A DNA stretch of 64,000 bases, from the NCBI GenBank assembly GCA_965261085.1, contig OZ253442.1, forward strand, positions 3,392,001 through 3,456,000, written 5' to 3'. Source of the DNA: a bacterium. GTDB taxonomy: Bacteria; UBA8248. Positions 2,767 through 25,031 of the stretch are shown here, one piece after another. Position 1 is the stretch's first letter. The number at the start of each line of letters is the position of its first letter. The position numbers and the translations under genes were made by a program. The notes beneath the pieces were generated by a model. That model did not search any database. It was given only the letters and a program-made list of their open reading frames with translations, and was not told the origin of the DNA.

Positions 2767-4158
2767 ATGTCAAATAAATTCTTTTCAGACCACGCAAAGT
2801 GGCCCCGGTGCGTTTCGGGGGGGCCTTTCCTGTTCTTCAGCGGGCGGATGGGAATGCACCCGCAAACGGGGAACATCTGCACCAAGTACGCCGAAATCGG
2901 AGACAAAGGGCCTGCGCGGACCAAAAATTACCCCTGGGTCGACAAGATCGAAGCGCCCATCGGAGCTCAGGCCATCGCTACCTATGAGGGCGTGGGGGAA
3001 ACGCTTGAGGCAAACGGCGGTGGGCTGGAGAATCTGCTCAGGTTTCATCTGTATCAGCTCGACAAGCGCTTTTTCCCGGTGTTCGACAGCATCAGGCGCC
3101 ACTATGAACCTGCGGCCCCCACGCCGAGCACCGCCGTGGGCATGGGCGCGTTCGACCCGGAGAGAACAGTGCGCTTCAACATCGACGGCATCGCCCTGAA
3201 TCCCAAAGCGGCGGAAACTTTGGGGGAAAGAATGGTGCATGAAGGCTCAAAGGCGCATTCGGCCGCCGCTCATTTCTCCCACGTCGTGGGCGCGGGGCCG
3301 TACCTGTTCGTCGCCGGGCAGATTCCGACGGATACCTCCAAACCCGGCTCTCCCCTCATTCGCAATTATCCTGATATCCCTAAAAAGGGGAGATTCCTCT
3401 CCGTAGGCCAGAGCCACGAGGACAGCCGAAACGGCCCCATCGCCGCGCAATCGTGGTTCGTGTACGACCTCATCCGAAAACATCTGGAGGGCTCGGGCTC
3501 TTCTCTTAAAAACATCCTGAACCTCACCGTCTATCTCCAGGACATGCGGGATTTCCCCACCTTCCACCGCATCCACGAGAGATTTTTCCAAAAAGACCCG
3601 CCAGCCCTTACGGTGATGCAGGTGGCGGAAGTCGGCCACAAGGGGGAGAAAATTGAAATCGAGCCCACGGCGTTGACGAACAAAGGGGACTTCAAGCGCG
3701 AGGTGATCCGCGGCGACGATGGATCAGGCGCGCAGATGAGCCTCGGTATCGAGGCGGGCGGTCTTTTGTTCCTCTCAAACCTTGTCGGCCTGAACGAAGA
3801 CGGTGAACCGATTAGCAAAAGAAGTGAATTGAGGGGAGCGCTCCGCAAGAAACTACCGAAAGCATCTTCGCCATCGACGAAAAACGCGGTCTTACAGGGG
3901 CTGGATATTCTGGATCGGATGGAAAGCGCGATGAAAGCCGCAGACTCCGATATGAGCCGGGTGACGCACCTGACCCTGTTTCTCCAGAACATCGCTCACC
4001 TATCGGCGCTCGAGCCTTTGTTCAGAAAGTACTTTCCGAAACGAAGGCCGGCCTTCACGGCGATACAGATACCGGAGCCCTCGCCCGTCGCGGGTACGGA
4101 AGTCTCGATTACGGCCATCGGGTGGATAGGCGATGGCGAGCCGGAAATCGTCGCCTAA
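2767..4158 (+). CDS. Protein with three tandem RidA/YjgF/UK114-like domains
   Basis: Three repeats of the Rid pattern: FLFFSGRM, YLFVAGQIP, LLFLSNLVG, each followed by a G..L..I...T.YL.D-like segment and P..T. Abuts the upstream stop (TAAATG). Confidence 0.8.
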   Translation: MSNKFFSDHAKWPRCVSGGPFLFFSGRMGMHPQTGNICTKYAEIGDKGPARTKNYPWVDKIEAPIGAQAIATYEGVGETLEANGGGLENLLRFHLYQLDKRFFPVFDSIRRHYEPAAPTPSTAVGMGAFDPERTVRFNIDGIALNPKAAETLGERMVHEGSKAHSAAAHFSHVVGAGPYLFVAGQIPTDTSKPGSPLIRNYPDIPKKGRFLSVGQSHEDSRNGPIAAQSWFVYDLIRKHLEGSGSSLKNILNLTVYLQDMRDFPTFHRIHERFFQKDPPALTVMQVAEVGHKGEKIEIEPTALTNKGDFKREVIRGDDGSGAQMSLGIEAGGLLFLSNLVGLNEDGEPISKRSELRGALRKKLPKASSPSTKNAVLQGLDILDRMESAMKAADSDMSRVTHLTLFLQNIAHLSALEPLFRKYFPKRRPAFTAIQIPEPSPVAGTEVSITAIGWIGDGEPEIVA

Positions 4159-5654: not shown

Positions 5655-6554
5655 TCATCGGGGACGCTCCGCCGCGCCCAGCAACATGGCCACCGCGGCG
5701 AAATCCAAATCCCCCAGACCATCGCGCGAAGCCATGCGGTAGACCTGGTTCGCGGCTGCGCCGGAAGGACACGGCAACCCCAGGGACATGAGAGCGGAAA
5801 CGGCCAGGGACATATCCTTGAGCATCAAATCCACCGTAAAGCCCGCCTCGAAATCCTTGCTCGAAGGCGCGCCCTCGATGAGGCCGGGGCAAGGCGGGTC
5901 TTTTTCCATCACCCAGCTTCCGCCACTGCTCGTGCGTATCACCTCGTGGAGAATTTTGGTATCCACGCCCGACGCCTTGCCCATGGCGAACGCCTCCGCA
6001 GCCGCCACCATGGTGACGCCCGCTATTAAATTGTTGCAGAGTTTCGCGACCTGCCCCGCGCCGTACTCTCCGACGTGGATGATGTTTTTCCCCAGCAACG
6101 CCAGAACGGGCTGCGCCGCATCGAACGCCTCTTTCGGCCCCCCGACCATGATGGTGAGGCTCGCCGCCTCAGCGCCCATCACCCCGCCCGAGACGGGCGC
6201 GTCAATCGCCACCGCTCCGCGCTCAGTCGCTTCGGCGGCGAGTTTGCGGCTCTGCTCGGGCTCTATGGTGGAGAGGTCGACCAGCAAGCCGCCCTCGCCC
6301 ACGGCTTCCATGAGGCCTCCCTCGCCCAGGTAGACCACATCCACCTCGGCTCCCGTGGGCAAGGAAGTGAACACGATCTCGCAAGTAGCGGCGAGTTCCG
6401 CAGGGCCAGACGCCTCGGAGGCGCCATGAGAAACGGCGCTCTCCACGGCTTCGCGGCCGACGTCCACCACGCCCACTTCATGTCCCGCATTGATGAGGTG
6501 CGGCACCATGCGGCCACCCATTGCTCCGACTCCTACAAAACCCAATCGCTTCAT
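5655..6554 (-). CDS. 3-hydroxyisobutyrate dehydrogenase family (MmsB-like) NAD-dependent oxidoreductase
   Basis: GFVGVGAMG, DAPVSGG, KLCNN, GFTVDLMLKD. Confidence 0.9.
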   Translation of the reverse strand: MKRLGFVGVGAMGGRMVPHLINAGHEVGVVDVGREAVESAVSHGASEASGPAELAATCEIVFTSLPTGAEVDVVYLGEGGLMEAVGEGGLLVDLSTIEPEQSRKLAAEATERGAVAIDAPVSGGVMGAEAASLTIMVGGPKEAFDAAQPVLALLGKNIIHVGEYGAGQVAKLCNNLIAGVTMVAAAEAFAMGKASGVDTKILHEVIRTSSGGSWVMEKDPPCPGLIEGAPSSKDFEAGFTVDLMLKDMSLAVSALMSLGLPCPSGAAANQVYRMASRDGLGDLDFAAVAMLLGAAERPR

Positions 6555-6601
6555 CAGATATCCTCCACGAATAATTTTCTCATTTTCATTCTCATCAAAT
6601 C

Positions 6602-7981
6602 TTAACCCGCCCTCGATAGAAATTCTTCCGCCACCGCGCACAGGAATCCCTCCCTGAAGGCGGGCGCAAGGAGGGTCACTCCGATGGGCAGCCCGTTTGC
6701 ATAAAAACCATTGGGGATGGCGATGGCGCATAAATCCAGCAAATTCACAAAATTCGTATACATCCCCAGATTCGCGTTCAAGGCGACGGGGTCGGCATTC
6801 ACCTCGTCTATCGTATAGGCCGTGGGCGTGGTGGGGACCGCCAGAAAATCGACCTCACACCAGACTTCTCCCGCCTCGCGTTTTAGTTCCTCCAGGCGAT
6901 AGAAGGCCCGGAAAGCATCGACCGCCGAGTATCGGGCGGCGCCCGCAATCAACTCCCGCGTTACGGGATGAAGGGCTTCCGGCTTCTTCCTATAAAATTC
7001 TTCAATCGCCGCCAGACGCTCCGCCACCCAAGGACCTCCGTACAGGAGTTCCGCTGTCTCGAAAAAAGATGAAAAATCGACCTCCCGCACGGCCACGCCC
7101 ATCTCCGCGATACGCTCGACCCCCCGCTCATAGGCCCTTTTCGCTTCCTCGTCTCCCAGGAAGTCTCTTTGTTCGGGAAGGGGCGCACCAGCTTTCAATC
7201 CCTTTGGCAGATCAGCCGTCATCTCCAGGGACGCTCCCGCCGGAAGAGCGCGGCTATAGGGGTCCTCATCCGGGACGGCCATCCTCTCGAACGCGCAATG
7301 TGCGTCCGAAACTTCTGCGGCGAAAACCGAGACGCAATCGAGCGTGCGGCAAGCAGGAACCACGCCACACGCGCTCACCAGTCCTCGTGAGGGCTTGAGA
7401 CCCACGATGTTGTTGAACCCGGCAGGCACTCGGCCCGAACCGGCCGTGTCCGTGCCGAGCGCGAAACTCACCAGACCCGCCGCGACGGCCACGGTCGAGC
7501 CCGAACTCGAACCTCCCGGAATGTAGTCAGGGTGAAACGGGTTTTCGGCGACACCATACGGCGTGCGAACACCCACGAGACCCAAGGCGAACTGATCCAG
7601 GTTCGTCTTCCCGACGAAAACGGCTCCTGCGTCGAGCAGATGCTCTACGCAGGGAGCGCTCTCATCGGGCGTATAGGCGTATTCGGGACACGCCGCCGTC
7701 GTCGGAATGCCCGCGACGTCGATGTTGTCTTTCACCGCAAACGGAACACCGAATAGAGGCAGTTCAGGCGCATCCGCGCTGCGAGCTTCCAACTCTTGCG
7801 CGCGCGCGAGTAATTTATCCTCAGGCTCAACGTGAATCCACACGCCGTCTTCACCGCGCGCGGTGATTCGCCGATAAACCTCAAGAACGATGTCCACCGG
7901 TGTTCGCTCGCCTGAGGAATATGCTTGCCGGAGCCTGGAGAATCTCATCTCCTCCACGTGCGGCGCGACGCCCTTCATCAT
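6602..7981 (-). CDS. Allophanate hydrolase (AtzF)-like amidase, N-terminal amidase domain only
   Basis: PLFGVPFAVKDNIDVAG.PTTAACP, GKTNLDQFA.GLVG.RTPYG, GTDTAGSGRVPA, YTNFVNLLDL. Confidence 0.85.
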   Translation of the reverse strand: MMKGVAPHVEEMRFSRLRQAYSSGERTPVDIVLEVYRRITARGEDGVWIHVEPEDKLLARAQELEARSADAPELPLFGVPFAVKDNIDVAGIPTTAACPEYAYTPDESAPCVEHLLDAGAVFVGKTNLDQFALGLVGVRTPYGVAENPFHPDYIPGGSSSGSTVAVAAGLVSFALGTDTAGSGRVPAGFNNIVGLKPSRGLVSACGVVPACRTLDCVSVFAAEVSDAHCAFERMAVPDEDPYSRALPAGASLEMTADLPKGLKAGAPLPEQRDFLGDEEAKRAYERGVERIAEMGVAVREVDFSSFFETAELLYGGPWVAERLAAIEEFYRKKPEALHPVTRELIAGAARYSAVDAFRAFYRLEELKREAGEVWCEVDFLAVPTTPTAYTIDEVNADPVALNANLGMYTNFVNLLDLCAIAIPNGFYANGLPIGVTLLAPAFREGFLCAVAEEFLSRAG

Positions 7982-11983: not shown

Positions 11984-12562
11984 ATGCCCCAAGGAATGGA
12001 ATTCTCATCGGTTGACCCAAAGGAGGAGAGCATGGACGTCACAATGAATAGAGAAATGGTCAGAAAACGTCTCTACAAACTCGGCGACAAAACACAAGCC
12101 AAAATAGCAGAAAGACTCAACTGCGACGAGGGCACAGCCCGCCGAATCCTTAACGGGGCCTCCGTTCGATTGAACACTGCAGAAAAAGTATCTCAGATAT
12201 TACTACTCGATCCGCTTGAAGTCATTAATTTTGGAATTAATAAGGAAGAGCAACCTACAGACACGGAGGAGCAAATTTCAGAAGCGGACCAACAAAACGC
12301 ATTCTTCACGGAAGCCGAACAGACGGCTTGTGATGCGGCTGGCGAAAGCATGAACGACACCCTCAACCGTTATGGTGCGTACAATCGTGAAGAAGTCTCA
12401 AACGTTCTGTCCCTTCTTCTCCTGACATACGGAGTGGCCCTCTCGTATGAGGCCCCCACAGACGGCTTGCTTTTCATTGACGAGATCACCCACAAGGCGA
12501 AAAGATTGGTTTACTTAAATCTGTTAAAGATGCAGTCTGAAGACACAACAGATTCCGATTAG
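11984..12562 (+). CDS. Hypothetical protein with N-terminal XRE-like HTH, lower GC
   Basis: TQAKIAERLNCDEGTARRILNG helix-turn-helix pattern; AT-richer than flanks; start uncertain. Confidence 0.6.
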   Translation: MPQGMEFSSVDPKEESMDVTMNREMVRKRLYKLGDKTQAKIAERLNCDEGTARRILNGASVRLNTAEKVSQILLLDPLEVINFGINKEEQPTDTEEQISEADQQNAFFTEAEQTACDAAGESMNDTLNRYGAYNREEVSNVLSLLLLTYGVALSYEAPTDGLLFIDEITHKAKRLVYLNLLKMQSEDTTDSD

Positions 12563-15029: not shown

Positions 15030-15036
15030 GTTTTCT

Positions 15037-15052
15037 TGGTAGCGGGAGGAGG
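15037..15052. repeat. Attachment site (displaced tRNA 3' end)
   Basis: TGGTAGCGGGAGGAGG matches tRNA end 24523-24538 TGGTAGCGGGGGGAGG at 15/16. Confidence 0.85.
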
Positions 15053-15309
15053 TGTAGAATCTACATATTAACTTATTGTATTTATTGAAGTTACATTTTA
15101 TGCTCCGCTTCTTTTACCACGATAAATACCACTCATAATGTGGGAATATACGGGAATATCATCGGCTCCTAGTATGCGCTCACCACGCTTATACCACGAA
15201 CGCCGACACGTTTTCGACCTCTAAGCGCCTCAAATATTCAGGAGGATTCTCGGGTAGGGGGAAGGGCCTGGCGCTCGCCCTGCGCCGCCACTGCAAGGAT
15301 GAGGTGCTG

Positions 15310-15528
15310 TCATAGTGGGTACCCCGCTTCGTCGTATCTCGCGTTCGTCTCCATGGCCTTCTCGATTAGGCGATCAAGTTCCTGCGTCCCGTAGTGAAGA
15401 TTTTCCACCAGGAAATCCCATTCCGCCGCGCTTAGGTTTTCCATTCCGTGCTCCCGCGCTCGTTCGAGTAAAACCTGCGCGCGCGCGGTCGGGTCTCGCC
15501 AGGTCTTCTTCATCCTGGCCCTACTCAT
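15310..15528 (-). CDS. Hypothetical protein (satellite)
   Basis: 72 aa ORF overlapping the portal stop; last gene of the element. Confidence 0.55.
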   Translation of the reverse strand: MSRARMKKTWRDPTARAQVLLERAREHGMENLSAAEWDFLVENLHYGTQELDRLIEKAMETNARYDEAGYPL

Positions 15529-16594
15529 TCAAAACTCCCGACACGGCGGCGGCTTGTTCAAGCGCCATGCCTCCTTGCACCATTTTCGCAAATGACGCCG
15601 CTCTGCCTTGCAAGTCGTGCGCCCATAGGCGGCTCAAGTCGAAGCTGATCCGTGTCTCAAGTTTCGCCTCAAATTCTTGTTTCACGATCTCGAGTAGCGG
15701 CTCCACCGATCCCATGACGAAACGCCGCCAGCTTTCGCGCTGGCTTGTGCCATCCGCATCCGAGGCGAGACTCACGGGAACGCCGCAAGCGCTCAAAACG
15801 CTCATCCCGGATTCGCTCCGAAGGAACCTAAGAGTGTCGGGCGGATCGGCTCCGAGGCGTGATGAGACGAAATCTTTACGCGGCGCTTCACTCATGCCTT
15901 TTTGCCAGCCGCCCGCCGTGGTTTCCGTCAAAATGGTACGGCCCTTCGCGGCGGCGATGTCGGCCTTGAGCATCTTGAGCGGATCGTCACCTTCACCGTC
16001 TCCGCCGTCCGAGGGAATGGGAACAACGTGCGCCACCGGGCCGCCCGCTTCTTCGCCCAAGCGTTTTTCGAGATTGCCCGCAAGCGTTCCCGTTTCTCGC
16101 GCCCACCCGAGCGGCCCGACGCCGTACCACGGACGCGCCGGATCAACTGCGTATCGGAAATGCAGTACCTGGCCCGACTGGACAAGGCGCGTGAGATTTC
16201 CCGAGGGACCGAAAAGATCGGCCCGGTAAAACCAACTTGACTCATCATGGCCGCCCCTCACGTCCCAGCTTCCCACGGGGAGAAATTCCACTTGCCCGCG
16301 GCGTAGCTCGATGACGTGCAAGCCTTCGCCGCGGCGGATGAGATTTCGTGCGATGAGGGCCATCATCCCCGGAGTGATTCTTTCCGCCCGGTCGCCTGTA
16401 ACCTTCGCGGCGGCGAAGGCTTGCGCATAGAGCGCCGCGCTGGTTTCGAGCGCCCACGTCTGCGCGGGATCGCCCGGCATGGTTCCTTCGGCTTGCGATA
16501 CGATGGCTTGAACGAGCGCGTCCGTGAAGGGTTGCGTTTCCCGCTTCTCCGCCGCGCCGCCGCGCCAGTCTATCGCCGGAATTTGCGCGCTCAT
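15521..16594 (-). CDS. Phage portal protein (HK97-like)
   Basis: NLIRRGEG, VLHFR, WYGVGPL, SACGVP.SL, VEPLLEIVKQEFEAKL; ATGA overlap with upstream gene. Confidence 0.85.
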   Translation of the reverse strand: MSAQIPAIDWRGGAAEKRETQPFTDALVQAIVSQAEGTMPGDPAQTWALETSAALYAQAFAAAKVTGDRAERITPGMMALIARNLIRRGEGLHVIELRRGQVEFLPVGSWDVRGGHDESSWFYRADLFGPSGNLTRLVQSGQVLHFRYAVDPARPWYGVGPLGWARETGTLAGNLEKRLGEEAGGPVAHVVPIPSDGGDGEGDDPLKMLKADIAAAKGRTILTETTAGGWQKGMSEAPRKDFVSSRLGADPPDTLRFLRSESGMSVLSACGVPVSLASDADGTSQRESWRRFVMGSVEPLLEIVKQEFEAKLETRISFDLSRLWAHDLQGRAASFAKMVQGGMALEQAAAVSGVLNE

Positions 16595-16953
16595 CCGATC
16601 ACCCCCCCGCGTCGCACTTTCCACCTCGTCAAAAGTGCCCCGGCGCCCGATAGCTGGAACGACGAAGCGGGCGGCGCCATACGGAATTCGATCACCACAT
16701 CCCCCACGTCTATTTTCTGGATCGATCCGGGCGGCGCTTGCGCCAAATATCCCGCGTAACGAATCAGCGCCTCATCCTTCACGGCTTGCGGAGCGAGAGG
16801 CGCATACTCTTCGATAACCGCCGCCGCCACTTCCCCGAGTTCGGAGATTGTCTCATCGTCCGCACTACTCAAACCCGAGACACGCCTTTTCAGTTTCGCA
16901 ATCGCCGCCGTGCGGGCTTGCGTGCCGGCGTTCGGCCAAGGACTCAGAGCCAT
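16591..16953 (-). CDS. Putative head-tail connector (HK97 gp6/SPP1 gp15-like)
   Basis: DDETISELGEVAAAVIEEY..PQAVKDEALIRYAGYL..GDVVIEF..ALLTRWK pattern and 120 aa size. Confidence 0.7.
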   Translation of the reverse strand: MALSPWPNAGTQARTAAIAKLKRRVSGLSSADDETISELGEVAAAVIEEYAPLAPQAVKDEALIRYAGYLAQAPPGSIQKIDVGDVVIEFRMAPPASSFQLSGAGALLTRWKVRRGGVIG

Positions 16954-17918
16954 AATCTCGACCTCCTGGGTTCGCCGGCAGCGCCAGCCGGCATGTCATC
17001 ATCGCGGCCACGCCGAAAACGAACAGGCGTCCACCCCCCGCTCGCGTCAGTAGCACCAATCTGCAAGGCCCTGATTCTCGCTTTCTGATAGGTTGCCCTG
17101 CCTGCCTCAAGAACAAAATCAGAAGCACCCGCCGCCGTGTCGATGACGGGCCTTGCGATAACGTCCGCCGCGTCCATGCTTTCGAGCAATGCCCTGCCCC
17201 GTGGCGAGTCGGGAACGTCTAGCGCATACTCCAAACCGCCGCGCTTGTCAGACCAAAATCGGAGCGTCTTTCGTTTCCGGCTCCCAAGCGGGTTTGCATA
17301 TTCCCCGAGCACGGCGAGCGCGTCTTTTTGTTGATCCGGATCAATCGCCCCGTCCAAAGCGCCGCTCTCGAAAAGAGCTTCCGTGCAATCACCGGGAGAA
17401 CACCGGCATTCGACCGCCCGCTTCGCCGGGATGTTTCCCCGGATCGTTCGTAGACGCTTAGCGCGTTCCTCGCGTTGGCGGGCCGACACGATGCTTTGCT
17501 CATACTGCGGATCGTCAACCACGGCGACGCCGACAAGCTGCGCTTTCTCGATGATTCTGATATCACCGTCCTGGTGTTCCTGCCTCGAATGAAATTCGAT
17601 GCTCAGACCTCGCAAGATTTTTGCTTTTACGAGAGCGATTGTTTCCGTCGCGGATGGCGTGTTCGGGAGCGTGGCGCGAATGCGGAGCTCTTCGGGTGAG
17701 TCGATGAGCTCAAGGCCGCCGCCGCCCGTGCGAGCGAGGGGCGTTTTCCGGTCGTGCTGTCTGTTCAAAATTGTGTCGCCCAAGGGCGCGAACGCGCCCG
17801 GATCGATGCGCTCCCGGCCCCACGGGAAAACCGCCTCATCCCCGTAAACGAGCGCCGCGCCTTCGAGTAAACGACCTTCGGATTGTCGCAGTTCGAGAAA
17901 GCGTCTCTCCGGTTCCAT
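16944..17918 (-). CDS. HK97-type prohead protease with a second degenerate protease-like domain
   Basis: LEGAALVY, ERIDPGAF, QHD (His), PLART, GLSIEF (Ser), VAVVDDPQY in the first ~150 aa. Confidence 0.85.
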   Translation of the reverse strand: MEPERRFLELRQSEGRLLEGAALVYGDEAVFPWGRERIDPGAFAPLGDTILNRQHDRKTPLARTGGGGLELIDSPEELRIRATLPNTPSATETIALVKAKILRGLSIEFHSRQEHQDGDIRIIEKAQLVGVAVVDDPQYEQSIVSARQREERAKRLRTIRGNIPAKRAVECRCSPGDCTEALFESGALDGAIDPDQQKDALAVLGEYANPLGSRKRKTLRFWSDKRGGLEYALDVPDSPRGRALLESMDAADVIARPVIDTAAGASDFVLEAGRATYQKARIRALQIGATDASGGWTPVRFRRGRDDDMPAGAAGEPRRSRLWL

Positions 17919-17920
17919 GA

Positions 17921-18193
17921 CTACACCTCGTCGACGACTACGTGGGCGATTGCGCCGGTGCGTGGAACCCATATCCAAACCTTGTCCAGGCCGGTCGCAT
18001 AAACGATTCGCTCTTCGCCTGGTTGCATTATCGGGCCGCGCTTCGAAGATGTTGGCGCGGCGGGAGAAAACCGGATGCGGACGCGCTCGGAGTTTGAAAG
18101 ATTCTCGATACTGTGGTGATTTGAGAAATCAATTCCCAAGGCCGCGCCCAGGTCTTGCGGCGTGTCGGTCGCCTCAAAATCAAGAGTCGCCAT
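17921..18193 (-). CDS. Small beta-rich protein, possible capsid decoration/spike base
   Basis: 90 aa directly after the capsid gene with GGAGG RBS; alternating beta-strand pattern (IENLS..VRIRF..GPIMQPGE..VWIWV). Confidence 0.55.
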   Translation of the reverse strand: MATLDFEATDTPQDLGAALGIDFSNHHSIENLSNSERVRIRFSPAAPTSSKRGPIMQPGEERIVYATGLDKVWIWVPRTGAIAHVVVDEV

Positions 18194-18205
18194 TTTCGCG
18201 GCCTC

Positions 18206-19525
18206 CTACGCCACCTTGAAGGAAATCCGTTTATAGGCGTCGGCCCGGAAAGCGGCCTCCAGATCCCAAAGCGTGATCCACGTCAGCACCACACCTTGGC
18301 TCGCCTTCGAGTAGATATCCCGGATCACTTCGAGTGTTGGCCATACCGCTGCCACGGAATCGCCTCGCATCGCTCCGCCGTTCGGCCCGGCGGCGTGGAA
18401 AATGTTGCCCGACTGGATGTCCTGATTCGCGCCCGAGTCGGGCGGGGCGGGAACGTAGCTTGAGGCGACGCACATCATAGAGCGGCGCATGAGCGCTTCC
18501 GACGCGCTCTCATCGCTACCCGCTCCGGTGCGGTAGGTTCGGGCCGCCAACTGATACGACGCGACGCCGACCACGCTAGAGACTTCGCCCTCTCGTTGCG
18601 CGTGGACTCCATCCACGGCGCTCGCATGACTCCCGGCAAAATCCTCGAAGGTGGCAATGGCGCTTGGTGCGGTGGGAGCGGCGATTTTCTCATAGAAACC
18701 GGACGGCTCTTGCGCGTTCGTGGCCTCATCGCCGTTGAGCGCCAGGGCGCTCATCTTGCTTTTCACGGCGTCGGCCAGGTCGCGGCGAAGGGCTTGTTCG
18801 AGATCGGGAACCTGGGCGGACTGTTCATGCGTATATTCGTATCGGCCCGTAAGTCTTTTCGGCTTGAGCGTTTCCGTGTCGAACGTCGCCTCGCCCGCCG
18901 CCGCCGCCGCCATTCCTTCGGCCACGTTCGCGGGCGCGACGCCACCCGTGAGCAAAGGCCATTCCGTGCGGCCCGAAGGAACGGAATCTATCCGGACCCC
19001 GAGCGCATCCAAGATGCCCGACCCGAAAAGACGTTGCAGGATCGGACGTTGCGCGACCCCGCCCGCGTAGTCGCCGGTATCCGTGAATGCCCGGCGCTCC
19101 GCTTGCCTCGCTTCGGGCGCAGGGGAAGGGCCGGACAAAACGATCCACGGGATGCAAACGCCGCCGCTCTTGCCGACGGTCGACAACTGGAGGGCCGCGT
19201 TCAATTCCTTCGCCCGGCCCTCGATGCCGACGCCACCCGCCGCCCGGGTGAGATAGTCGCCGATTGAAACCGCGCCCATCAACTGGCGGATTTCCGTGCT
19301 CTCCCCGTCGCCTTCGTTGAAAGCGCCTTGCATCCGGGCTTCGTCTTCACCTTCGGCCACGATGGCGCTCCGGTGGCGTACTTCCAGATCGCCGTACTCG
19401 GCTTGAAGGGCGCTCGCTTCGTTCCTAATTTCTTCGGTGAAGGCGTCGCCCTCGATGCCGGATATTTCGTTCAAGCGGCCCCGCACTTCGGAGAGCCTGA
19501 TTTCGATTTTCTGTTTATTCGTCAT
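18206..19525 (-). CDS. Major capsid protein, HK97 fold, with N-terminal coiled-coil scaffold (delta) domain
   Basis: N-terminal heptad-like helix, VAEG, FDTETLKPKRLTG, DLEQALRRDLADAV..ALNGD..EPSG; strong AAGGAG RBS. Confidence 0.88.
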   Translation of the reverse strand: MTNKQKIEIRLSEVRGRLNEISGIEGDAFTEEIRNEASALQAEYGDLEVRHRSAIVAEGEDEARMQGAFNEGDGESTEIRQLMGAVSIGDYLTRAAGGVGIEGRAKELNAALQLSTVGKSGGVCIPWIVLSGPSPAPEARQAERRAFTDTGDYAGGVAQRPILQRLFGSGILDALGVRIDSVPSGRTEWPLLTGGVAPANVAEGMAAAAAGEATFDTETLKPKRLTGRYEYTHEQSAQVPDLEQALRRDLADAVKSKMSALALNGDEATNAQEPSGFYEKIAAPTAPSAIATFEDFAGSHASAVDGVHAQREGEVSSVVGVASYQLAARTYRTGAGSDESASEALMRRSMMCVASSYVPAPPDSGANQDIQSGNIFHAAGPNGGAMRGDSVAAVWPTLEVIRDIYSKASQGVVLTWITLWDLEAAFRADAYKRISFKVA

Positions 19526-19560
19526 TGTTTAATCTCCTTTCATGCCCCGCCCATCAGTGC

Positions 19561-19605
19561 ATAAGATGTACTAATATACATTATTATAAATACTAAACAA
19601 GGTGA
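19561..19605 (-). promoter_or_regulatory. AT-rich putative promoter/operator upstream of the capsid gene
   Basis: Minus strand TTGTTT-N16-TATATT plus TATAAT; ATGTA-N6-TACAT inverted repeat. Confidence 0.45.
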
Positions 19606-19612
19606 CAGAATG

Positions 19613-19906
19613 TCATGGTGTGTCGACCAGCTCGCGCACCAGCTCGCGCCACGCTTCGACGCCTGGACGCGGCGGCGGGCGATGCGAGGCGATATGACAA
19701 TCCCGGCAATAGGTCGCCGTGTTCGTCATGGCGAAAGGTTCTCCGCCATCTTCGAGCGGCTTGATATGGTGAGCTTCGAGGCGACCGGCTTTGCCGCAAA
19801 TTACGCAACGCCAGCCGTCGCGCTCGAAAACGGATTTTCGGAATGCGGCCCACCGGCGCTTACTCAGTTTCGCGTGATGACGGCTCCCCGGATGCTTTCG
19901 ACTCAT
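19613..19906 (-). CDS. HNH endonuclease (packaging-associated type)
   Basis: RDGWRCVICG..LEAHHIKP..N...YCRDCH. Confidence 0.9.
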   Translation of the reverse strand: MSRKHPGSRHHAKLSKRRWAAFRKSVFERDGWRCVICGKAGRLEAHHIKPLEDGGEPFAMTNTATYCRDCHIASHRPPPRPGVEAWRELVRELVDTP

Positions 19907-21399
19907 CCCACAATCGCCGATCGGAGCCGTCGCGGCGCTTGTGTTTTCTTTGCCCTGCGATAGCCCGCCGCAACGGCAAGGATGGCGGCGGCCGCTGCGT
20001 CATCCCTCGCCCGTTTTCGTCGGCCGCCTTGCGTGGATTTCGAGAGCTTGGCATTCCCGGCCGCGTCCATCACCACGCGGGCCTCGCTCATGGCGGCCGT
20101 CATCAAAAGCGAGCGCGAGGGCCGCACCGCGTCCGCAAGGCAAGCCTCCCGGAAAAGCCGCACGTCTTCTCCGCCGTCCTTGAATCCCTGCCCGCGCACC
20201 TCAACAGCCGTGAGGGGGAAACCGGCTTTTTCGAGCGAATCTCGCAACTCCGCCTCGCGCCACCTATCGCATACAATGAGATCGGGAAAGCCCCACCGCT
20301 CGCGCACTTCGTGAAGCAATGAGCGAATATCGGAAACGCGCCGCCCGGCGATGATCAACTCCCCCCGCTCCGCCATGCGACGATACAAACCGCCGACGCC
20401 ATCCGAAAGGCCACGCTCGCGCAAGTCGGGAAGCTCGGGAAAACACGCCACGCACTCAAGCGCCTTCGTGTCTGGCCAGTAGGCCGCCGCCGCGCTCATC
20501 GCCGCCGACGTGCCAAGGTCAAGCCCGAGCGCCCAGCGTCCCCGGCGTTCGTTTTCCGGGGCCTCGATGCGCGCCCACGTTCCCGCGTCAAGCAAGGTGC
20601 TTAGGAGCGTGTCGGGAGTGCCAAGGTTAAGCCGGTATGCTTCAAACTCCGCCAGCTTGGAAGCATCGCGCCGGGCCTCATCCGCTTCCTTGCGAATCCG
20701 GGCCTCAAGCGCCGGGAGATATTTGAGTGAGGGATTCGCCTTCGCCCACGTCCGGCGCTGAAACGGAGAATCGTCTTTTCGCGCCGCGTGGCATTGCGCA
20801 TAGTCCGCGCTTTCGAGTAATCGGGAAAACCAATGCTCGGGGGTGTCGGGTTTCGTTCCCAGCGCCACCATGCGAGAGCCGGGAATTTTCCCCATTGCAG
20901 TTCGGAGCGCCGACACCATTCTATCGCTTTTTGACGGCTCCCATTGCGCGGGTTCATCCGCCAACACAAGCGCCGGTGCCAGCCCGTGCGCTCGCGCCGG
21001 ATCGCATCCGATACAACGCACTCTAGCTCCGCTCGGGCGGTGCTCGATGGCGGCGTTTTGCGCCGTGTCCCACACCCGCCACTCGCTCTTGAGCGCCAGC
21101 CGGTCGCCGATAAACGCCCGGACGTGTTCAAAACTGATTCGCGCTTGCCCGAAGGATGACGCCGCAATAATCACGTCCGCTCTCGGCTTTCGGAGCGGGC
21201 CGTCTAGGAAGGCCGCCGCCACTCCCGAGAGTAAGGTTGTTTTCCCGTTCCCCCTCGCCACGGATAGGGCCGCGTCGCCATCCACCCCGAACGCGCCGCG
21301 AAGGAACCTGCGCTCCCACGGGAAAAGCGGGAACGGCTCCCCCACGCCCTCGCCCTGGGTAACCTGTAGGCCCTCGATGTATTTGAGAAGCGGTCGCAT
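19903..21399 (-). CDS. Terminase large subunit
   Basis: Walker A ARGNGKT, Walker B LVLADE, ANPSL, nuclease LGLDLG, QGF, DD.AAA. Confidence 0.9.
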   Translation of the reverse strand: MRPLLKYIEGLQVTQGEGVGEPFPLFPWERRFLRGAFGVDGDAALSVARGNGKTTLLSGVAAAFLDGPLRKPRADVIIAASSFGQARISFEHVRAFIGDRLALKSEWRVWDTAQNAAIEHRPSGARVRCIGCDPARAHGLAPALVLADEPAQWEPSKSDRMVSALRTAMGKIPGSRMVALGTKPDTPEHWFSRLLESADYAQCHAARKDDSPFQRRTWAKANPSLKYLPALEARIRKEADEARRDASKLAEFEAYRLNLGTPDTLLSTLLDAGTWARIEAPENERRGRWALGLDLGTSAAMSAAAAYWPDTKALECVACFPELPDLRERGLSDGVGGLYRRMAERGELIIAGRRVSDIRSLLHEVRERWGFPDLIVCDRWREAELRDSLEKAGFPLTAVEVRGQGFKDGGEDVRLFREACLADAVRPSRSLLMTAAMSEARVVMDAAGNAKLSKSTQGGRRKRARDDAAAAAILAVAAGYRRAKKTQAPRRLRSAIVG

Positions 21400-21484
21400 T
21401 CAAGACTCCCGGAGAGGCTTTTGTTTGAAGTTCGTCTCTACCCCCACGCCCCCCAAGGAATTTCGGCTACTATCGGCGGTGCCA

Positions 21485-21712
21485 TCATCGCGCCGTTCGC
21501 TCCACGTCCGCGTTCATGGCTTCCGCGAGAGCAGCGGCGAACTCGCGGCCCCTCTCGCGTCCTCGCAGTCGGTTCGTGACCCGGATGACTCCCATGCGGA
21601 CGTGCCATCGCTCCAGTTCGGCAAAGGGGAGAACCCGGCCACACCGCCCACACACAAGCGCCACGTCACCCACTTCGGGGATGCGCCAGCGGTGCGGACG
21701 GCAAGCGAGCAT
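21485..21712 (-). CDS. Small hypothetical protein with C-x-x-H..CxxC possible Zn site
   Basis: MLACRPHRW..VCGRCG; TGATG coupling with the upstream ORF. Confidence 0.55.
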   Translation of the reverse strand: MLACRPHRWRIPEVGDVALVCGRCGRVLPFAELERWHVRMGVIRVTNRLRGRERGREFAAALAEAMNADVERTAR

Positions 21713-21888
21713 CAGTCTTGCTCCGCTTCGCCCATTCGCCGCGCAAATTCCTCGTCCAATGCCGCGCACATCGCTTCGCGCTGATCCGGCTCACAATTCT
21801 CGAGGTAGAATTTGAACAAGTCCAGTCGATTTTTCGGGTCATCTGCAATGAGAATGACGGCCCCGTTGCAAAAGGAAATTTGAATCAT
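21712..21888 (-). CDS. Small hypothetical protein, 58 aa
   Basis: Hand translation MIQISFCNGAVILIADDPKNRLDLFKFYLENCEPDQREAMCAALDEEFARRMGEAEQD; GAGG RBS; below the ORF-track cutoff. Confidence 0.55.
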   Translation of the reverse strand: MIQISFCNGAVILIADDPKNRLDLFKFYLENCEPDQREAMCAALDEEFARRMGEAEQD

Positions 21889-21899
21889 TTTTTCATCCT

Positions 21900-22390
21900 C
21901 TCGAAAAATTTTGGCCCGATACCTTCAGACCCTTAAAATCCTTAAAAGATGAAGAACAATGCCCTCAATCAGGCAGGGGCCGCGCCATCCACCAAGAAGC
22001 GATCACTCGGGGAAGGCAATGTCTCGCCTGCCTCGCTGCGCTCAGTAGCGGCTCGCCTTTCAGTTCATCGCCGCCGCCCCATCGGATATCCCGGAGGCCG
22101 CGCCTGGGCGCACCTCCCCTTACGAAGGAGAGGTGCGGAGGTCATCCCGTGTGGCCGACTTTTCACGCTGCGTCATCTTCCCGGAAAGTTTCTGCGAGGG
22201 GGCGTTCGCCGTGTCCCTTTCTCAAGGGCGATTCATGGCGTCGGCCTGTCCGCTTTTCTCGACGGCTCGCTCCGCCTTCCATTGCCAGCCCGCCATGACG
22301 CTTCCCTCGGCGGTGTGCTACGCTGGTACCTCTGCACGAGAATCACCCCCGCGTGACGGAGCGTTCGAGGCACCGACACACCACGCGAGG
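21900..22390 (-). ncRNA. Candidate structured non-coding RNA or origin region in the satellite
   Basis: No convincing ORF; several nested helices including a GAGA tetraloop hairpin (see findings). Confidence 0.45.
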
Positions 22391-22427
22391 AAAAAGAAAC
22401 CCCGGCCTTGCGAGCCGGGGGTTTCTT
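22391..22427 (-). terminator. Intrinsic terminator after alpA
   Basis: AAGAAACCCCCGGC-TCGCAAG-GCCGGGGTTTCTTTTT on the minus strand. Confidence 0.8.
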
Positions 22428-22638
22428 ATGAGGCCGCTACTACCGCTTCCGGTGTTTCGCCTTGCGCGACCGGGCGGGAGTCGAGCCATTCCTCGAGATC
22501 GGAGAGTCGCCACCTCACACTGCGTGGCCCGACGCGGATCGCGGGAGGAAACCAACCCTCTTTGAGGCCGCGATAAATTTTTGAGCGTGAGACCCTGCAG
22601 AATTGCTCGACTTCGGGGCGGGTGAGTAGCGTTTCCAT
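22426..22638 (-). CDS. alpA: AlpA family regulator/excisionase
   Basis: LLTRPEV..VSRSKIYR...GWFPPAIRVGPRSVRWRLSDLEEW. Confidence 0.92.
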   Translation of the reverse strand: METLLTRPEVEQFCRVSRSKIYRGLKEGWFPPAIRVGPRSVRWRLSDLEEWLDSRPVAQGETPEAVVAAS

Positions 22639-22767
22639 TTCGTGTCCTCCTGTGCTTGGGAAGTTCTTTGTCTACACAGAAGATAGCGCCGAAGGAAATC
22701 TAAAAAGAATCCACTTAATTCATTTTTTTTGAGGAAATTTCCGGGGATTATTTGTCAAATAAGTAGA

Positions 22768-23184
22768 CTAGAGATTTTTGCGATCATCAAATATTTTTTC
22801 AAGATAGGTGCATTTCAAACCGATTTCTTTCCCTAGTTCGTTGCAAAGCGAATCCTCCCAGTTCACCTTGTCAACGATGGCTCGCTTGACTCCGTTTCGC
22901 TTCGCCTCGTCTTTGCGGCGGATCAGTTCTTCAACGATCATCCGGTTTCGGAGTTTGGTGTTTTCAATGATGATCCGAAACTCTTTGCCGCCGTGATTTA
23001 TTCGAGGCCCCGGCTTCAAAATCGGGAGGCGCTCGGTGAAAGGTAGCGTCTCTCGCTCCTTGCGACGCTTTTCTCTGTCCTTGCACTCAAACTCACGAAG
23101 CCGATTCCAATAAAACCGGGCCTCCAACCGTTCGAATCGTTCCGCAACGGAAATGAACCTCTCCAAAACATCGGTATTCCTCAT
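22768..23184 (-). CDS. Hypothetical basic protein coupled to the integrase
   Basis: ATGA overlap with integrase stop; possible C-terminal HTH. Confidence 0.6.
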   Translation of the reverse strand: MRNTDVLERFISVAERFERLEARFYWNRLREFECKDREKRRKERETLPFTERLPILKPGPRINHGGKEFRIIIENTKLRNRMIVEELIRRKDEAKRNGVKRAIVDKVNWEDSLCNELGKEIGLKCTYLEKIFDDRKNL

Positions 23185-24365
23185 CGAATCGCCACCACCT
23201 TCCCGGCCTCGCCACCTGCTACGAAACGACCCCATTGATCCATGAGCCGACGCCGCTTCTCGAAAAGATCGGAGCGCGCATAGCTTCGTTCAACATCGCT
23301 CCCGACTTGGTGCGCAAGCGCCAATTCCATGACGGCGTGCTCGGCGTTCGTTTTCTCGCTCGCCCACGTTCGGAATGACGTGCGGAATCCGTGAATAGTC
23401 GCCCGAGACGCGAGGCCCGTGTCTCTCAAAATCTTCGTCATGGTCATGTCCGAAAGCGGCTTGCCTGTCTTCATGGGCGAGGGAAAAATCACACCTTCGC
23501 CACCGGAAAGCGGGCGCGCTTGTTCGAGCACGGCGAGCACCTCATCGCTTAGTGGAACGCGATGTTCTTTTCCACCCTTCATGCGCTGGCCAGGGATGCG
23601 CCATTCTCGCGCCTCGGTGTCGATTTCTCCCCACGTCGCACCGCGCACTTCGCCCGAGCGCGCCGCGCATAAAATCAAAAACCGGATCGCCAGCTTCGCG
23701 GCCATCGACGCCCCGCTCGATTCGATGATATCGAGCGCCTGCCCGACTTCCCGATAATCCAGCGCCCGGAAGTGCGCCTTCACCTTCGCCATACGCGGGA
23801 GCGCGCCATCGATGGCCTCACCGGCGGGATTGTTCTCGATGAATCCGTGGGCCTGCGCCCACTGCATCACGGAGCGGATTTTCTGACGTAGCTTGCGAGC
23901 CGTCTCCGACTTGGTGCTCCATATCGGCGTCAAAATGCGGAGCACTGCCTCGCGGTCAATCTCATCAATGCGCATATCGCCTATGGCGGGAAAAGCATAC
24001 TTGCTCACAATCTGAATCCAGTTCTTCGCGTGTTTCTCGGCGCGCCATCGCGGCTTGTTCGCTTCGTACACCTTGTGGGCGGCTTCCCGGAATGTCGGCA
24101 TCTTCGCCCGGCGCTTCTCCGCCAGTATGTCGCGCTTCTCAATGCGAGCGGCCCGGCGGTTTTCGTGCGCCTTCTCTCTCGCTTCGGCCAAACTCACCAA
24201 AGAAAACGAGCCGAGGCCGATATCTCGGCGAACGCCGTTGATCGCCAGCCTTTGCACCCAGCTTTTCGCCCCGGATGGGGAAATGTTGAGGTAAAGCGTG
24301 TCGCCTGCGCGATAGCGGCCAGGTGTTTTGAGTGATTTCGCCCTTGCGGCGGTGAATTTTTCCAT
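23181..24365 (-). CDS. int: P4-like tyrosine integrase
   Basis: Arm-binding N-terminus (LYLNISPSGAKSW, GLGSF..VSLAEAR), ARSGEV, MK...EHRVPL, HGFR, LAH, Y. Confidence 0.95.
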   Translation of the reverse strand: MEKFTAARAKSLKTPGRYRAGDTLYLNISPSGAKSWVQRLAINGVRRDIGLGSFSLVSLAEAREKAHENRRAARIEKRDILAEKRRAKMPTFREAAHKVYEANKPRWRAEKHAKNWIQIVSKYAFPAIGDMRIDEIDREAVLRILTPIWSTKSETARKLRQKIRSVMQWAQAHGFIENNPAGEAIDGALPRMAKVKAHFRALDYREVGQALDIIESSGASMAAKLAIRFLILCAARSGEVRGATWGEIDTEAREWRIPGQRMKGGKEHRVPLSDEVLAVLEQARPLSGGEGVIFPSPMKTGKPLSDMTMTKILRDTGLASRATIHGFRTSFRTWASEKTNAEHAVMELALAHQVGSDVERSYARSDLFEKRRRLMDQWGRFVAGGEAGKVVAIR

Positions 24366-24410
24366 GCGTTTCCCTCCGTTTCCCACCTCATTTCCCACGT
24401 TCAATCAGGG

Positions 24411-24439
24411 AATCTATGAGAATCGAAAGGAATTGTCAA
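24411..24439 (-). promoter_or_regulatory. Sigma70-type promoter for the integrase
   Basis: TTGACA-N17-TAGATT on the minus strand. Confidence 0.65.
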
Positions 24440-24452
24440 GCCCCCAAAAGCA

Positions 24453-24482
24453 CCGAAACCCCTTTGTTTCAAGGGGTTTCGG
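24453..24482 (-). terminator. Element-supplied hairpin downstream of the tRNA
   Basis: CCGAAACCCCTT-TGTTTC-AAGGGGTTTCGG 12-bp inverted repeat. Confidence 0.65.
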
Positions 24483-24522
24483 GGTGTTTCGGGTATTTCT
24501 GGAAATGTATGAAATGAGTGCG

Positions 24523-24599
<77 letters not shown>

Positions 24600-24610
24600 T
24601 CAATATGTGT

Positions 24611-24639
24611 TATCTACTCCCGCATGGGCATTCTGTCAA
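24611..24639 (-). promoter_or_regulatory. Putative tRNA promoter
   Basis: TTGACA-N17-TAGATA on the minus strand just upstream of the tRNA. Confidence 0.55.
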
Positions 24640-24704
24640 GGAGAAGAGGTTTTCGAGAAACACCAGGGAGGCTCCCTTGACGTCAAGGCACCGAAAATCG
24701 TGCA

Positions 24705-25031
24705 TCATTTTTTCGAGGGAATGAACTCGTAGACGACTTCCCCTTTCTTGACGAGGCCTAAATCTTCTCTTGCAATCTTTTCGATCGCCTGCTTATCGGA
24801 GCGCAGAGAACGAATCTCCGCGCTCAATTCCTTGTTCTTCGTCTTTATTTCCTCGATCTCTATTTTGAGTTCGGACACGCGCTCTTTATTCACGATGACG
24901 GCGAGATACCCATCCTGGCCAAGCCATGCGGTTCCCAGCAACAAGAGGATGATGCCAGCAGAAATCCAGAAGAAGAGTCTAGCGGCTTTTGGCGATTGGC
25001 CCGTGCTGGATGATCGCCCTGCTTTTCGCAT
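24705..25031 (-). CDS. ftsB: Septum formation initiator FtsB/DivIC
   Basis: Single TM helix, coiled coil, IEKIAREDLGLVKKGE. Confidence 0.88.
   Translation of the reverse strand: MRKAGRSSSTGQSPKAARLFFWISAGIILLLLGTAWLGQDGYLAVIVNKERVSELKIEIEEIKTKNKELSAEIRSLRSDKQAIEKIAREDLGLVKKGEVVYEFIPSKK

Follow-up and report, generated by a model that had tools for sequence, protein, structure and literature searches.

What kind of mobile element carries an integrase and the genes for building and filling a phage head, with no recognisable gene for a tail, for lysis or for its own replication? The question is raised by an island at positions 15037-24538 of a 64,000-nt stretch of a bacterial genome (contig OZ253442.1, positions 3,392,001 to 3,456,000). 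This whole stretch is referred to as the window, and coordinates given without a locus name are counted from its first letter. The host is a sponge-associated bacterium. The island is probably an intact, integrative, capsid-forming phage satellite from a compact, deep-branching lineage; it is a discrete mobile unit and no deletion remnant. A preliminary description, made from the sequence alone, had interpreted it as a reduced satellite class with a fixed gene order and no replication gene. The reduced mobile unit and the recurring order stood; the missing replication gene as a trait of the class and a small protein (orf90) as part of the order did not.

Insertion site and related units

The island is a 9,486 bp insert at the 3' end of an initiator-like tRNA-Met gene (CAT anticodon; 24523..24599, minus strand), which was detected by ARAGORN and by the Rfam tRNA model (66 bits at 24526-24599). 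A GGG/CCC anticodon stem and a 1:72 mismatch were read from its sequence, and by these features we take it to be of the initiator type. The 3' 16 nt of the tRNA gene form attL (24523-24538, TGGTAGCGGGGGGAGG), as identified by repeat comparison. An imperfect 16-nt copy with 1 mismatch forms attR at the other end (15037..15052, TGGTAGCGGGAGGAGG), placed by empty-site alignment with the nearest relative (locus L028) and other same-genus loci. The repeat was found by eye and with a 9-mer script, and was not reported by a direct-repeat search at seed 11.

Orthologues (90-97% identity) of the gene that borders the island on the left occur in 21 same-genus loci. In 20 of these the distance from that left flank to the tRNA-Met flank is at most 852 nt, and in 16 it is at most 25 nt; in L028 they are separated by 3 nt and the site is free of the island. 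The left flank alone was detected in the remaining locus (L047). The insertion size of 9,486 bp was set from the adjoining flanks of these empty sites, and the boundaries of an att-bounded island in tRNA-fMet, as given in the preliminary description, were confirmed in the same way.

Occupied and empty sites were also found together. Contigs from three runs of one sample (X1-X3) carried the island at a depth of ~10 in X1 and X2 and ~4-5 in X3, and a contig with the uninterrupted site, joining 15034 to 24523, had depths of 26, 23 and 13 in the same runs. Single-nucleotide polymorphisms in the flanks of the latter point to a co-existing island-free strain, and the island is therefore a presence/absence polymorphism among close strains that co-exist. 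Only parts of the island, at lower identity, were recovered from a run of another study (X5). At the tRNA-Met gene (24342-24758), contig depths in X1-X3 and X5 added up to ~900-3,800, compared with 10-50 around it. Assemblies break at the island edge because many organisms in the samples share this tRNA-Met sequence.

Homologues of the major capsid protein (MCP) numbered 862 at E<=1e-3 among 8000 candidates scored. The longest contig measured 8.0-10.7 kb in 34 of the 119 other MCP clusters listed and 11-12 kb in none. Contig scans yielded four loci from genome contigs and five from metagenome contigs. Within the host's own phylum, 51 genomes were present in the collection and five had the MCP, including that of the window. 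terL (terminase large subunit), MCP and portal occurred together in 16 related loci, of which 13 were fully co-linear with the island in the order terL-HNH-MCP-protease-adaptor-portal; HNH was inverted in one of the others and the terL-HNH block in two.

Eight units could be sized. Besides the window copy at tRNA-Met, mapped insertions measured 9,494 bp at tRNA-Glu (L008, 22-nt repeat), 10,325 bp at tRNA-Lys (L018, 60-nt repeat) and 10,515 bp at tRNA-Asn (L024, 21-nt repeat). Three circular contigs (L012, L015 and L020) measured 9,459, 9,421 and 9,031 bp after removal of 99-103 nt terminal overlaps, and a fourth (L014, 9,606 bp) was circularly permuted, with both ends inside the MCP gene. These circular relatives are metagenomic or IMG/VR contigs. 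A scan of ten further open reading frames (ORFs) of relatives turned up no tail or lysis family. The predicted gene order thus recurred in att-bounded or circular units of 9.0-10.5 kb that have no tail genes, and two of the checks that had been proposed, for empty-site relatives and for recurrent units, gave positive results.

Family members were assigned to Nitrospinota, Gammaproteobacteria, Gemmatimonadota and a cultured alphaproteobacterium; they included copies from Nitrospinota, on a 5.06 Mb chromosome of Spongiisociaceae, on a 4.52 Mb chromosome of Longimicrobiales and in a metagenome-assembled genome of Thiotrichales. The alphaproteobacterial copy (L062) lies on a 1.58 Mb replicon (NZ_CP039965.1) of Pseudorhodobacter turbinis S12M18 and is distant (MCP 30%, TerL 33% identity). 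Within ~10-12 kb of the region 1194700-1213482 of that replicon it carries an AAA_25 helicase, terL, HNH, MCP, S78 protease, a 183-aa ORF, portal and a tyrosine integrase; no tail gene was found among its ten ORFs scanned. Modules have been shuffled within the family: L018 has 62% MCP and 33% TerL identity to the window copy, and L024 has 54% TerL and 28.5% MCP identity. Literature searches of article text returned no paper describing this satellite family and none combining a phage satellite with a sponge symbiont; a preprint on haloarchaeal satellites deals with spindle-shaped viruses.

Between the window copy and L008, the ratio of nonsynonymous to synonymous substitution rates (dN/dS) was 0.11-0.22 for terL, HNH, MCP, protease, adaptor and portal, with dS near saturation for some. 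By this measure, selection on the head and packaging genes is purifying. Some members of the family are decaying. In the two Longimicrobiales copies, the portal gene (L010, 12540-15801) and the MCP gene (L011, 10001-12820) are split by insertions of ~1.5-2 kb, and the Spongiisociaceae copy L009 has a 432-aa ORF between HNH and terL (6426-7721), guessed from reading to be a transposase.

When the MCP and portal were compared by tblastn with 50,697 phage records, neither found a match, and a parent phage is therefore not in sight. The MCP profile had no match among sequences of the Protein Data Bank (PDB) at E<=0.01, and the portal profile had one (6e-6). TerL matched 406 phage records, the best being those of the HK97 group (28.7% identity). 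The head module is HK97-like in kind and far from anything isolated.

A decaying prophage, left with its head module once the genes for tail, lysis and replication had been deleted, or a head cluster that has been domesticated would likewise present head and packaging genes of phage type, and the two interrupted Longimicrobiales copies are in keeping with such a history. Neither fits a unit size and gene order conserved across phyla, circular forms of 9.0-9.6 kb, the low dN/dS values, precise insertion at differing tRNA targets with empty sites in congeners and in the same sample, or the lack of MCP and portal matches among phage records. This explanation is largely refuted and highly improbable. 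The island is regarded as a discrete mobile unit, as the preliminary description had proposed, because of the purifying selection, the conserved order, the similar unit sizes and the circular forms, to which the empty sites add.

Gene content and the maintenance slot

All 13 ORFs of the island lie on the minus strand and all frames are open. They were screened against Pfam, PHROGs and NCBIfam, and five small ORFs were additionally screened with PADLOC; negative results on gene content below refer to these searches. Genes overlap by a few bases at terL/HNH, protease/adaptor, adaptor/portal, portal/orf72 and orf58/Zn-finger ORF, and the late genes from orf58 through orf72 are tightly packed, with stops overlapping starts. 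Integrase, alpA, terL, HNH, capsid, protease, connector and portal, reported in the preliminary description as co-oriented, intact and translationally coupled, were all recovered by the family searches or, for the connector, by structural comparison (see below). No family for a tail, lysis, primase, helicase, Rep, terS (terminase small subunit) or head-closure protein was found in the island, again in agreement with that description.

Packaging and head genes occupy the centre of the island. TerL is of the HK97 type (19903..21399, minus strand; phrog_9 E 7.1e-66; PF20441, PF03354) and is followed by an HNH endonuclease, a putative packaging accessory, whose start overlaps the terL stop (19613..19906, minus strand; PF01844; phrog_589 E 1.3e-16). 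The MCP (18206..19525, minus strand) belongs to the HK97 fold family (PF05065; TIGR01554 at 31.2 bits, cutoff 27.5) and has a long N-terminal region before the matched domain. ARAGORN also called a tRNA-Arg(CCG) of 90 nt antisense within the MCP gene (18471-18560, plus strand); it has no Rfam tRNA match and is probably a false positive. The prohead protease (16944..17978, minus strand, with the likely ATG at 17918) is of the S78 type (PF04586 E 9.5e-24 in two stretches; TIGR01543 at 62.4 bits, cutoff 59). At 324-344 aa it has double the normal length, its C-terminal half measuring ~170 aa, and seven relatives have proteases of 307-358 aa; the extra half could be a duplicated or degenerate protease domain or a scaffold-like region. 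The portal gene (15521..16624, minus strand) probably starts at an ATG at 16594, overlapping the adaptor stop; its product matched PF04860 (E 2e-13; 50.6 bits, cutoff 39.1) and phrog_12, and scored under the cutoff of TIGR01537.

Integration and regulation genes lie at the attL end. The integrase is a P4-type tyrosine recombinase (23181..24404, minus strand; PF13356 Arm-DNA-bind_3, PF22022 Phage_int_M and PF00589 Phage_integrase; phrog_1 E 6.6e-54), and an AlpA-family excisionase/regulator is encoded at 22426..22638 (minus strand; PF05930 E 2.8e-14), with homologues in six related loci. The accessory ORF orf155 lies between them (22768..23235, minus strand) and coincides with a dip in GC content (~0.52, compared with ~0.61). 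It had no homologue in related loci, and a search of the Atlas returned unnamed clusters only. Its position, the gap between int and alpA, is the usual spot for satellite cargo.

The other small ORFs, like orf155, had no family match. orf58 (21712..21888, minus strand) is the first gene of the late operon and is preceded by a GAGGA motif before its ATG. orf90 (17921..18193, minus strand) lies between MCP and protease; weak homologues occupy the same position in L018 and L023, and none is present in L008, the closest relative, so the small protein that the preliminary description had included in the conserved order is variable. orf72 (15310..15528, minus strand) is the last gene of the operon and has a weak 50-aa counterpart in L008.

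The Zn-finger ORF just upstream of terL was listed as 94 aa, extending to 21769. Its likely ATG overlaps the orf58 stop and gives a protein of 75 aa (21488..21712, minus strand), and an identical 75-aa protein is present in a public collection. The family has 162 representatives at E<=1e-3; C4, H7, P12, D16 and C24 do not vary, and C21 is conserved in at least 90% of the sequences. An AlphaFold (AF2) model (predicted local distance difference test, pLDDT, 95.2) consists of a small zinc ribbon followed by two helices. No Pfam family matched, the Atlas gave unnamed clusters only, and no solved fold was matched (Foldseek best E 1.6, VIA best Z 4.7). The protein is present in L008 and L025 and missing from the other loci. 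It may recognise DNA for packaging and is a candidate non-canonical terS. TerL of the four circular relatives carries an Arg-rich N-terminal extension of 50-80 aa (L012 3-203, L014 6202-6450, L015 3790-4038, L020 4006-4254) that integrated copies do not have, and the extension of L014 begins with a CxxC...CxxxC motif; it may serve as a built-in DNA-binding arm in place of terS. The idea that the Zn-finger protein is such an arm detached from TerL found no support (hhalign probability 8% against the Arg-rich extension).

Two non-coding regions stand out. The end of the element beside attR (15053..15309) contains a 74-nt block (15215-15288) that is 77% identical over 74 nt to the same position in L008 (blastn), in surroundings that could not be aligned; an AT-rich stretch follows next to attR in both copies. 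The block may be a cos site, a promoter or an arm site for the integrase. The second region, ~500 nt without a co-oriented ORF (21890..22400, minus strand), extends from a hairpin terminator-like site after alpA (22400-22420) to orf58 and is a candidate regulatory region, replication origin or cos region. Outside the island, a low-GC (~0.51) ORF of 192 aa with a helix-turn-helix (HTH)-like N-terminus, judged by eye, lies among metabolic genes (11984-12562, plus strand) and may be another small foreign insert.

The slot at 21890-22400 is occupied by different genes in different relatives. It holds an AAA_25 helicase in L024, L018, L009 and L062; a Zn-ribbon-HTH protein with a weak, sub-threshold DUF3102 match in L023; and a winged-helix protein of ~147 aa with weak MarR/TrmB-type matches in L008 and L025, the latter with a weak Phage_rep_O match as well. 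Among the circles, L012 and L020 encode a PF03090 plasmid replicase and L015 a Zn-ribbon-Toprim-AAA_25 primase-helicase. No replication gene could be recognised in the slot of L013, L010 and L014. The head cassette is thus the constant part of the family and the maintenance module the interchangeable part, with the window copy at the most reduced end. The earlier statement that no replication gene is present accordingly holds for the window copy, in which no family matched, and fails as a trait of the class, in which helicases, replicases and a primase-helicase occur.

Since a replication gene is missing here and present in most relatives, the window copy may be a non-autonomous derivative. 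On this account the family is self-replicating, and the copy lost its gene and now needs a sibling element or a helper, or is else inherited passively. The ORF-free ~500 nt lie exactly where L008 and L025 have the winged-helix gene and L024, L018 and L009 the AAA_25 helicase, and the element is single-copy in its genome. Set against this, tblastn of the relatives' maintenance genes found no remnant in 21890-22400 and matched the island only at AlpA, the Zn-finger protein and HNH; L013, L010 and L014 likewise lack a recognisable replication gene; and the remaining genes are intact and under purifying selection. Such a derivative, which we consider unlikely, would be a variant of the satellite and no separate kind of element.

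Adaptor, helper and proposed life cycle

A 120-aa protein, named a connector in the preliminary description, is encoded between protease and portal (16591..16953, minus strand). The protein itself had no sequence family; PF05135 was touched in 1 of 12 homologues. A PDB sequence profile gave chance matches only, and Foldseek gave none at E<=0.001. An AF2 model built on the 12 homologues (pLDDT 73) was compared with 48,161 representative chains (VIA-wide). All of the first 30 rows were phage or gene transfer agent (GTA) neck, portal-tail, tail-complex or prophage proteins, including the Douge connector (Z 8.3), HK97 gp6 (Z 8.1), a GTA adaptor (Z 7.8) and the SaPI1 neck (Z 7.2). From this modelled fold we call the protein a gp6-like head-tail adaptor, which would favour docking of a neck or tail. 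In L010, an HK97-gp10-like neck/tail-joining protein is encoded just upstream of terL (7046-7453; PF04883, E 4e-7); neck content therefore varies within the family.

A helper was sought in the host's own 4.27 Mb single-contig genome (96% complete). The phrog_9 and phrog_2 terL, portal and capsid families matched only the element, and PF10145 (tape measure), PF04984 (sheath), PF03237 and PF17289 had no match. No resident tailed prophage was thus found by family searches that are insensitive, and the helper would come from outside.

The same results might suggest a self-sufficient maker of tailless particles, whose DNA-filled heads are delivered as in a GTA or depend on vesicles or uptake, and which is no phage satellite. 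The island has no tail, tail-completion or head-closure gene, the terL, portal and capsid searches found no resident prophage, and circular relatives with replicons of their own are plasmid-like. A portal with a gp6-like adaptor is, on the other hand, a docking surface for neck and tail; L010 carries a neck/tail protein; no lysis gene is available for particle release; and the island is an insertion polymorphism at varying tRNA sites, unlike a GTA. We know of no portal-containing HK97-type head that delivers DNA without a tail. This explanation is judged quite unlikely.

For the capsid-forming satellite that we prefer, the following cycle is proposed. A signal from helper phage infection would switch on AlpA, and integrase and AlpA would excise the element as a circle. 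Replication of the circle into concatemers would fall to enzymes of the host or helper, since the element itself lacks a replication gene. A small procapsid would form from MCP, protease and portal, and TerL with HNH would cut at a cos-type site and pack one genome; this packaging type is suggested by a TerL nearest to the HK97 group and an HNH gene adjoining terL. The adaptor ring would then cap the portal. Head closure, tail and lysis would be supplied by the helper, whether inside the cell or once tail-less heads have been released, as in cf-PICIs, the phage-inducible chromosomal islands that form capsids.

Several points weigh against this proposal. The window copy has none of the initiator, helicase or replicase genes carried by most relatives. 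No attP (circle) joint was present among the joints listed in contigs of four runs, and contigs drop rare forms. The adaptor Z scores of 7-8.3 are middling by the tool's own scale, and it is the coherence of the list that carries the call. No terS or gp7-like head-closure protein was recognised in the island, so that cos recognition and DNA retention have no known agent. The tape-measure and sheath nulls are weak because a genome search with PF20441 missed the element's own terL. The predicted head size is arithmetic only: scaling of volume by T^1.5 from 15.5 kb in a capsid of triangulation number T=4 gives a capacity of ~10.1 kb for T=3, within or near the 9.0-10.5 kb of the eight sized units. 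Helper phage, induction, excision and packaging, finally, make up a presumed satellite life cycle that is read from genes alone.

A broader proposal can be offered tentatively, as possible and still doubtful. It describes a family, spread across phyla, of the smallest capsid makers with a portal known so far (9.0-10.5 kb, predicted T=3), whose conserved head cassette goes together with an exchangeable maintenance module (an integrase directed at tRNA genes, a replicase of the ColE2 type or a primase-helicase) or with none. Its members would live as island, plasmid or outsourced passenger and would move between phyla in sponge holobionts by means of tails that fit the adaptor ring. T=3 heads, if true, would set a new lower bound for portal-containing HK97 capsids. 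The natural series from self-replicating circles to an island without a replication gene bears on how little a satellite must encode, and the cultured P. turbinis strain, as carrier of a distant member, makes experiments possible. With its integrated and circular forms, interchangeable maintenance modules and spread across phyla, the family is broader than the preliminary description had pictured it.

Comparison with known systems

The closest parallel is the cf-PICI. The SatelliteFinder model for these elements has 11 core components, at least nine of which are required (de Sousa et al., 2023). At the median they measure 14 kb and encode 19 proteins. An operational definition in the text available from He et al. 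(2025) gives 10-18 kb, replication and regulation modules, no lysis genes and no complete tail module. According to the preprint 10.1101/2025.02.11.637232, cf-PICIs build T=4 heads for themselves, set free capsids that have no tails and obtain tails from other phages, and the cf-PICI EcCIEDL933 packs 15.5 kb in a T=4 head of 47.5 nm.

Counted with general family libraries rather than SatelliteFinder profiles, the island has eight of the 11 components (integrase, AlpA, TerL, HNH, capsid, protease, portal and adaptor) and misses the threshold of nine. No primase-replicase family was found in any island ORF (Pfam, PHROGs, NCBIfam), and the island scans gave no second neck family that could represent the head-tail connector. 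Tail and holin genes are absent, as in a cf-PICI, and 9,486 bp is just under the 10-18 kb range and well under the 14 kb median. The suggestion that the element is more reduced than a cf-PICI is upheld by both the component count and the size. The best reading is that it works like a cf-PICI, as judged from its genes, and misses the published definition.

With cf-PICIs such as EcCIEDL933 the island shares the integrase, AlpA, an HK97-type head and packaging module of its own, the lack of tail and lysis genes and a small genome. It differs in having no pri-rep module, no recognisable terS and a single neck protein; according to the preliminary description, in a gene order with terL-HNH before MCP and the portal last; in an MCP without a solved-structure match (E<=0.01) or a tblastn phage match; and in relatives that occur as circular replicons. 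Capsid-forming satellites have so far been known mainly from enterobacteria and Firmicutes, whereas this family occurs in Nitrospinota, Gemmatimonadota and sponge-associated Gammaproteobacteria. The same capsid-forming strategy would thus be present in uncultured marine phyla in a smaller and differently organised form. Counted by its recognised components, the family falls under the nine-of-11 threshold, and satellites of this sort may therefore be more numerous and more widely distributed than is estimated.

Two other groups of satellites share parts of this organisation. The Mulch and Flayer satellite phages of Streptomyces, in the part of their description that was available, likewise encode encapsidation machinery and lack key replication genes. 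One of them is non-integrating, in contrast to the island, and has its own tail adaptation for attachment to the helper; no relation in sequence was seen, as the island MCP has no match in the phage collection. [quoted passage not shown] They have no capsid genes, use helper particles and encode excision/replication proteins, whereas the island is the converse, with a complete head module but without a gene for replication.

The head and packaging module can also be compared with that of phage HK97, to which the head genes of the island are not close. TerL is 28.7% identical to the HK97 group, HNH lies beside the terminase gene, the S78 protease and MCP pass NCBIfam HK97 models, and the adaptor resembles gp6. 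Unlike HK97, the island has no terS, gp7-like protein or tail, and it is about a quarter of the 39.7 kb of that phage. The HK97 order is terS-terL-portal-protease-MCP, and that of the island is permuted by comparison.

A GTA of the RcGTA type likewise has a small head of the HK97 type, and the modelled adaptor is similar to a GTA adaptor (Z 7.8). GTAs have tail genes, are inherited vertically and pack random host DNA. The island, in contrast, is missing at 20 of 21 congeneric loci, occupies other tRNA genes in relatives, has att sites and an integrase and no tail genes, and matches in size its own presumed capsid. The strategy appears to be the known one of capsid-forming satellites, and what appears to be new is a tiny, deep-branching family that uses it.

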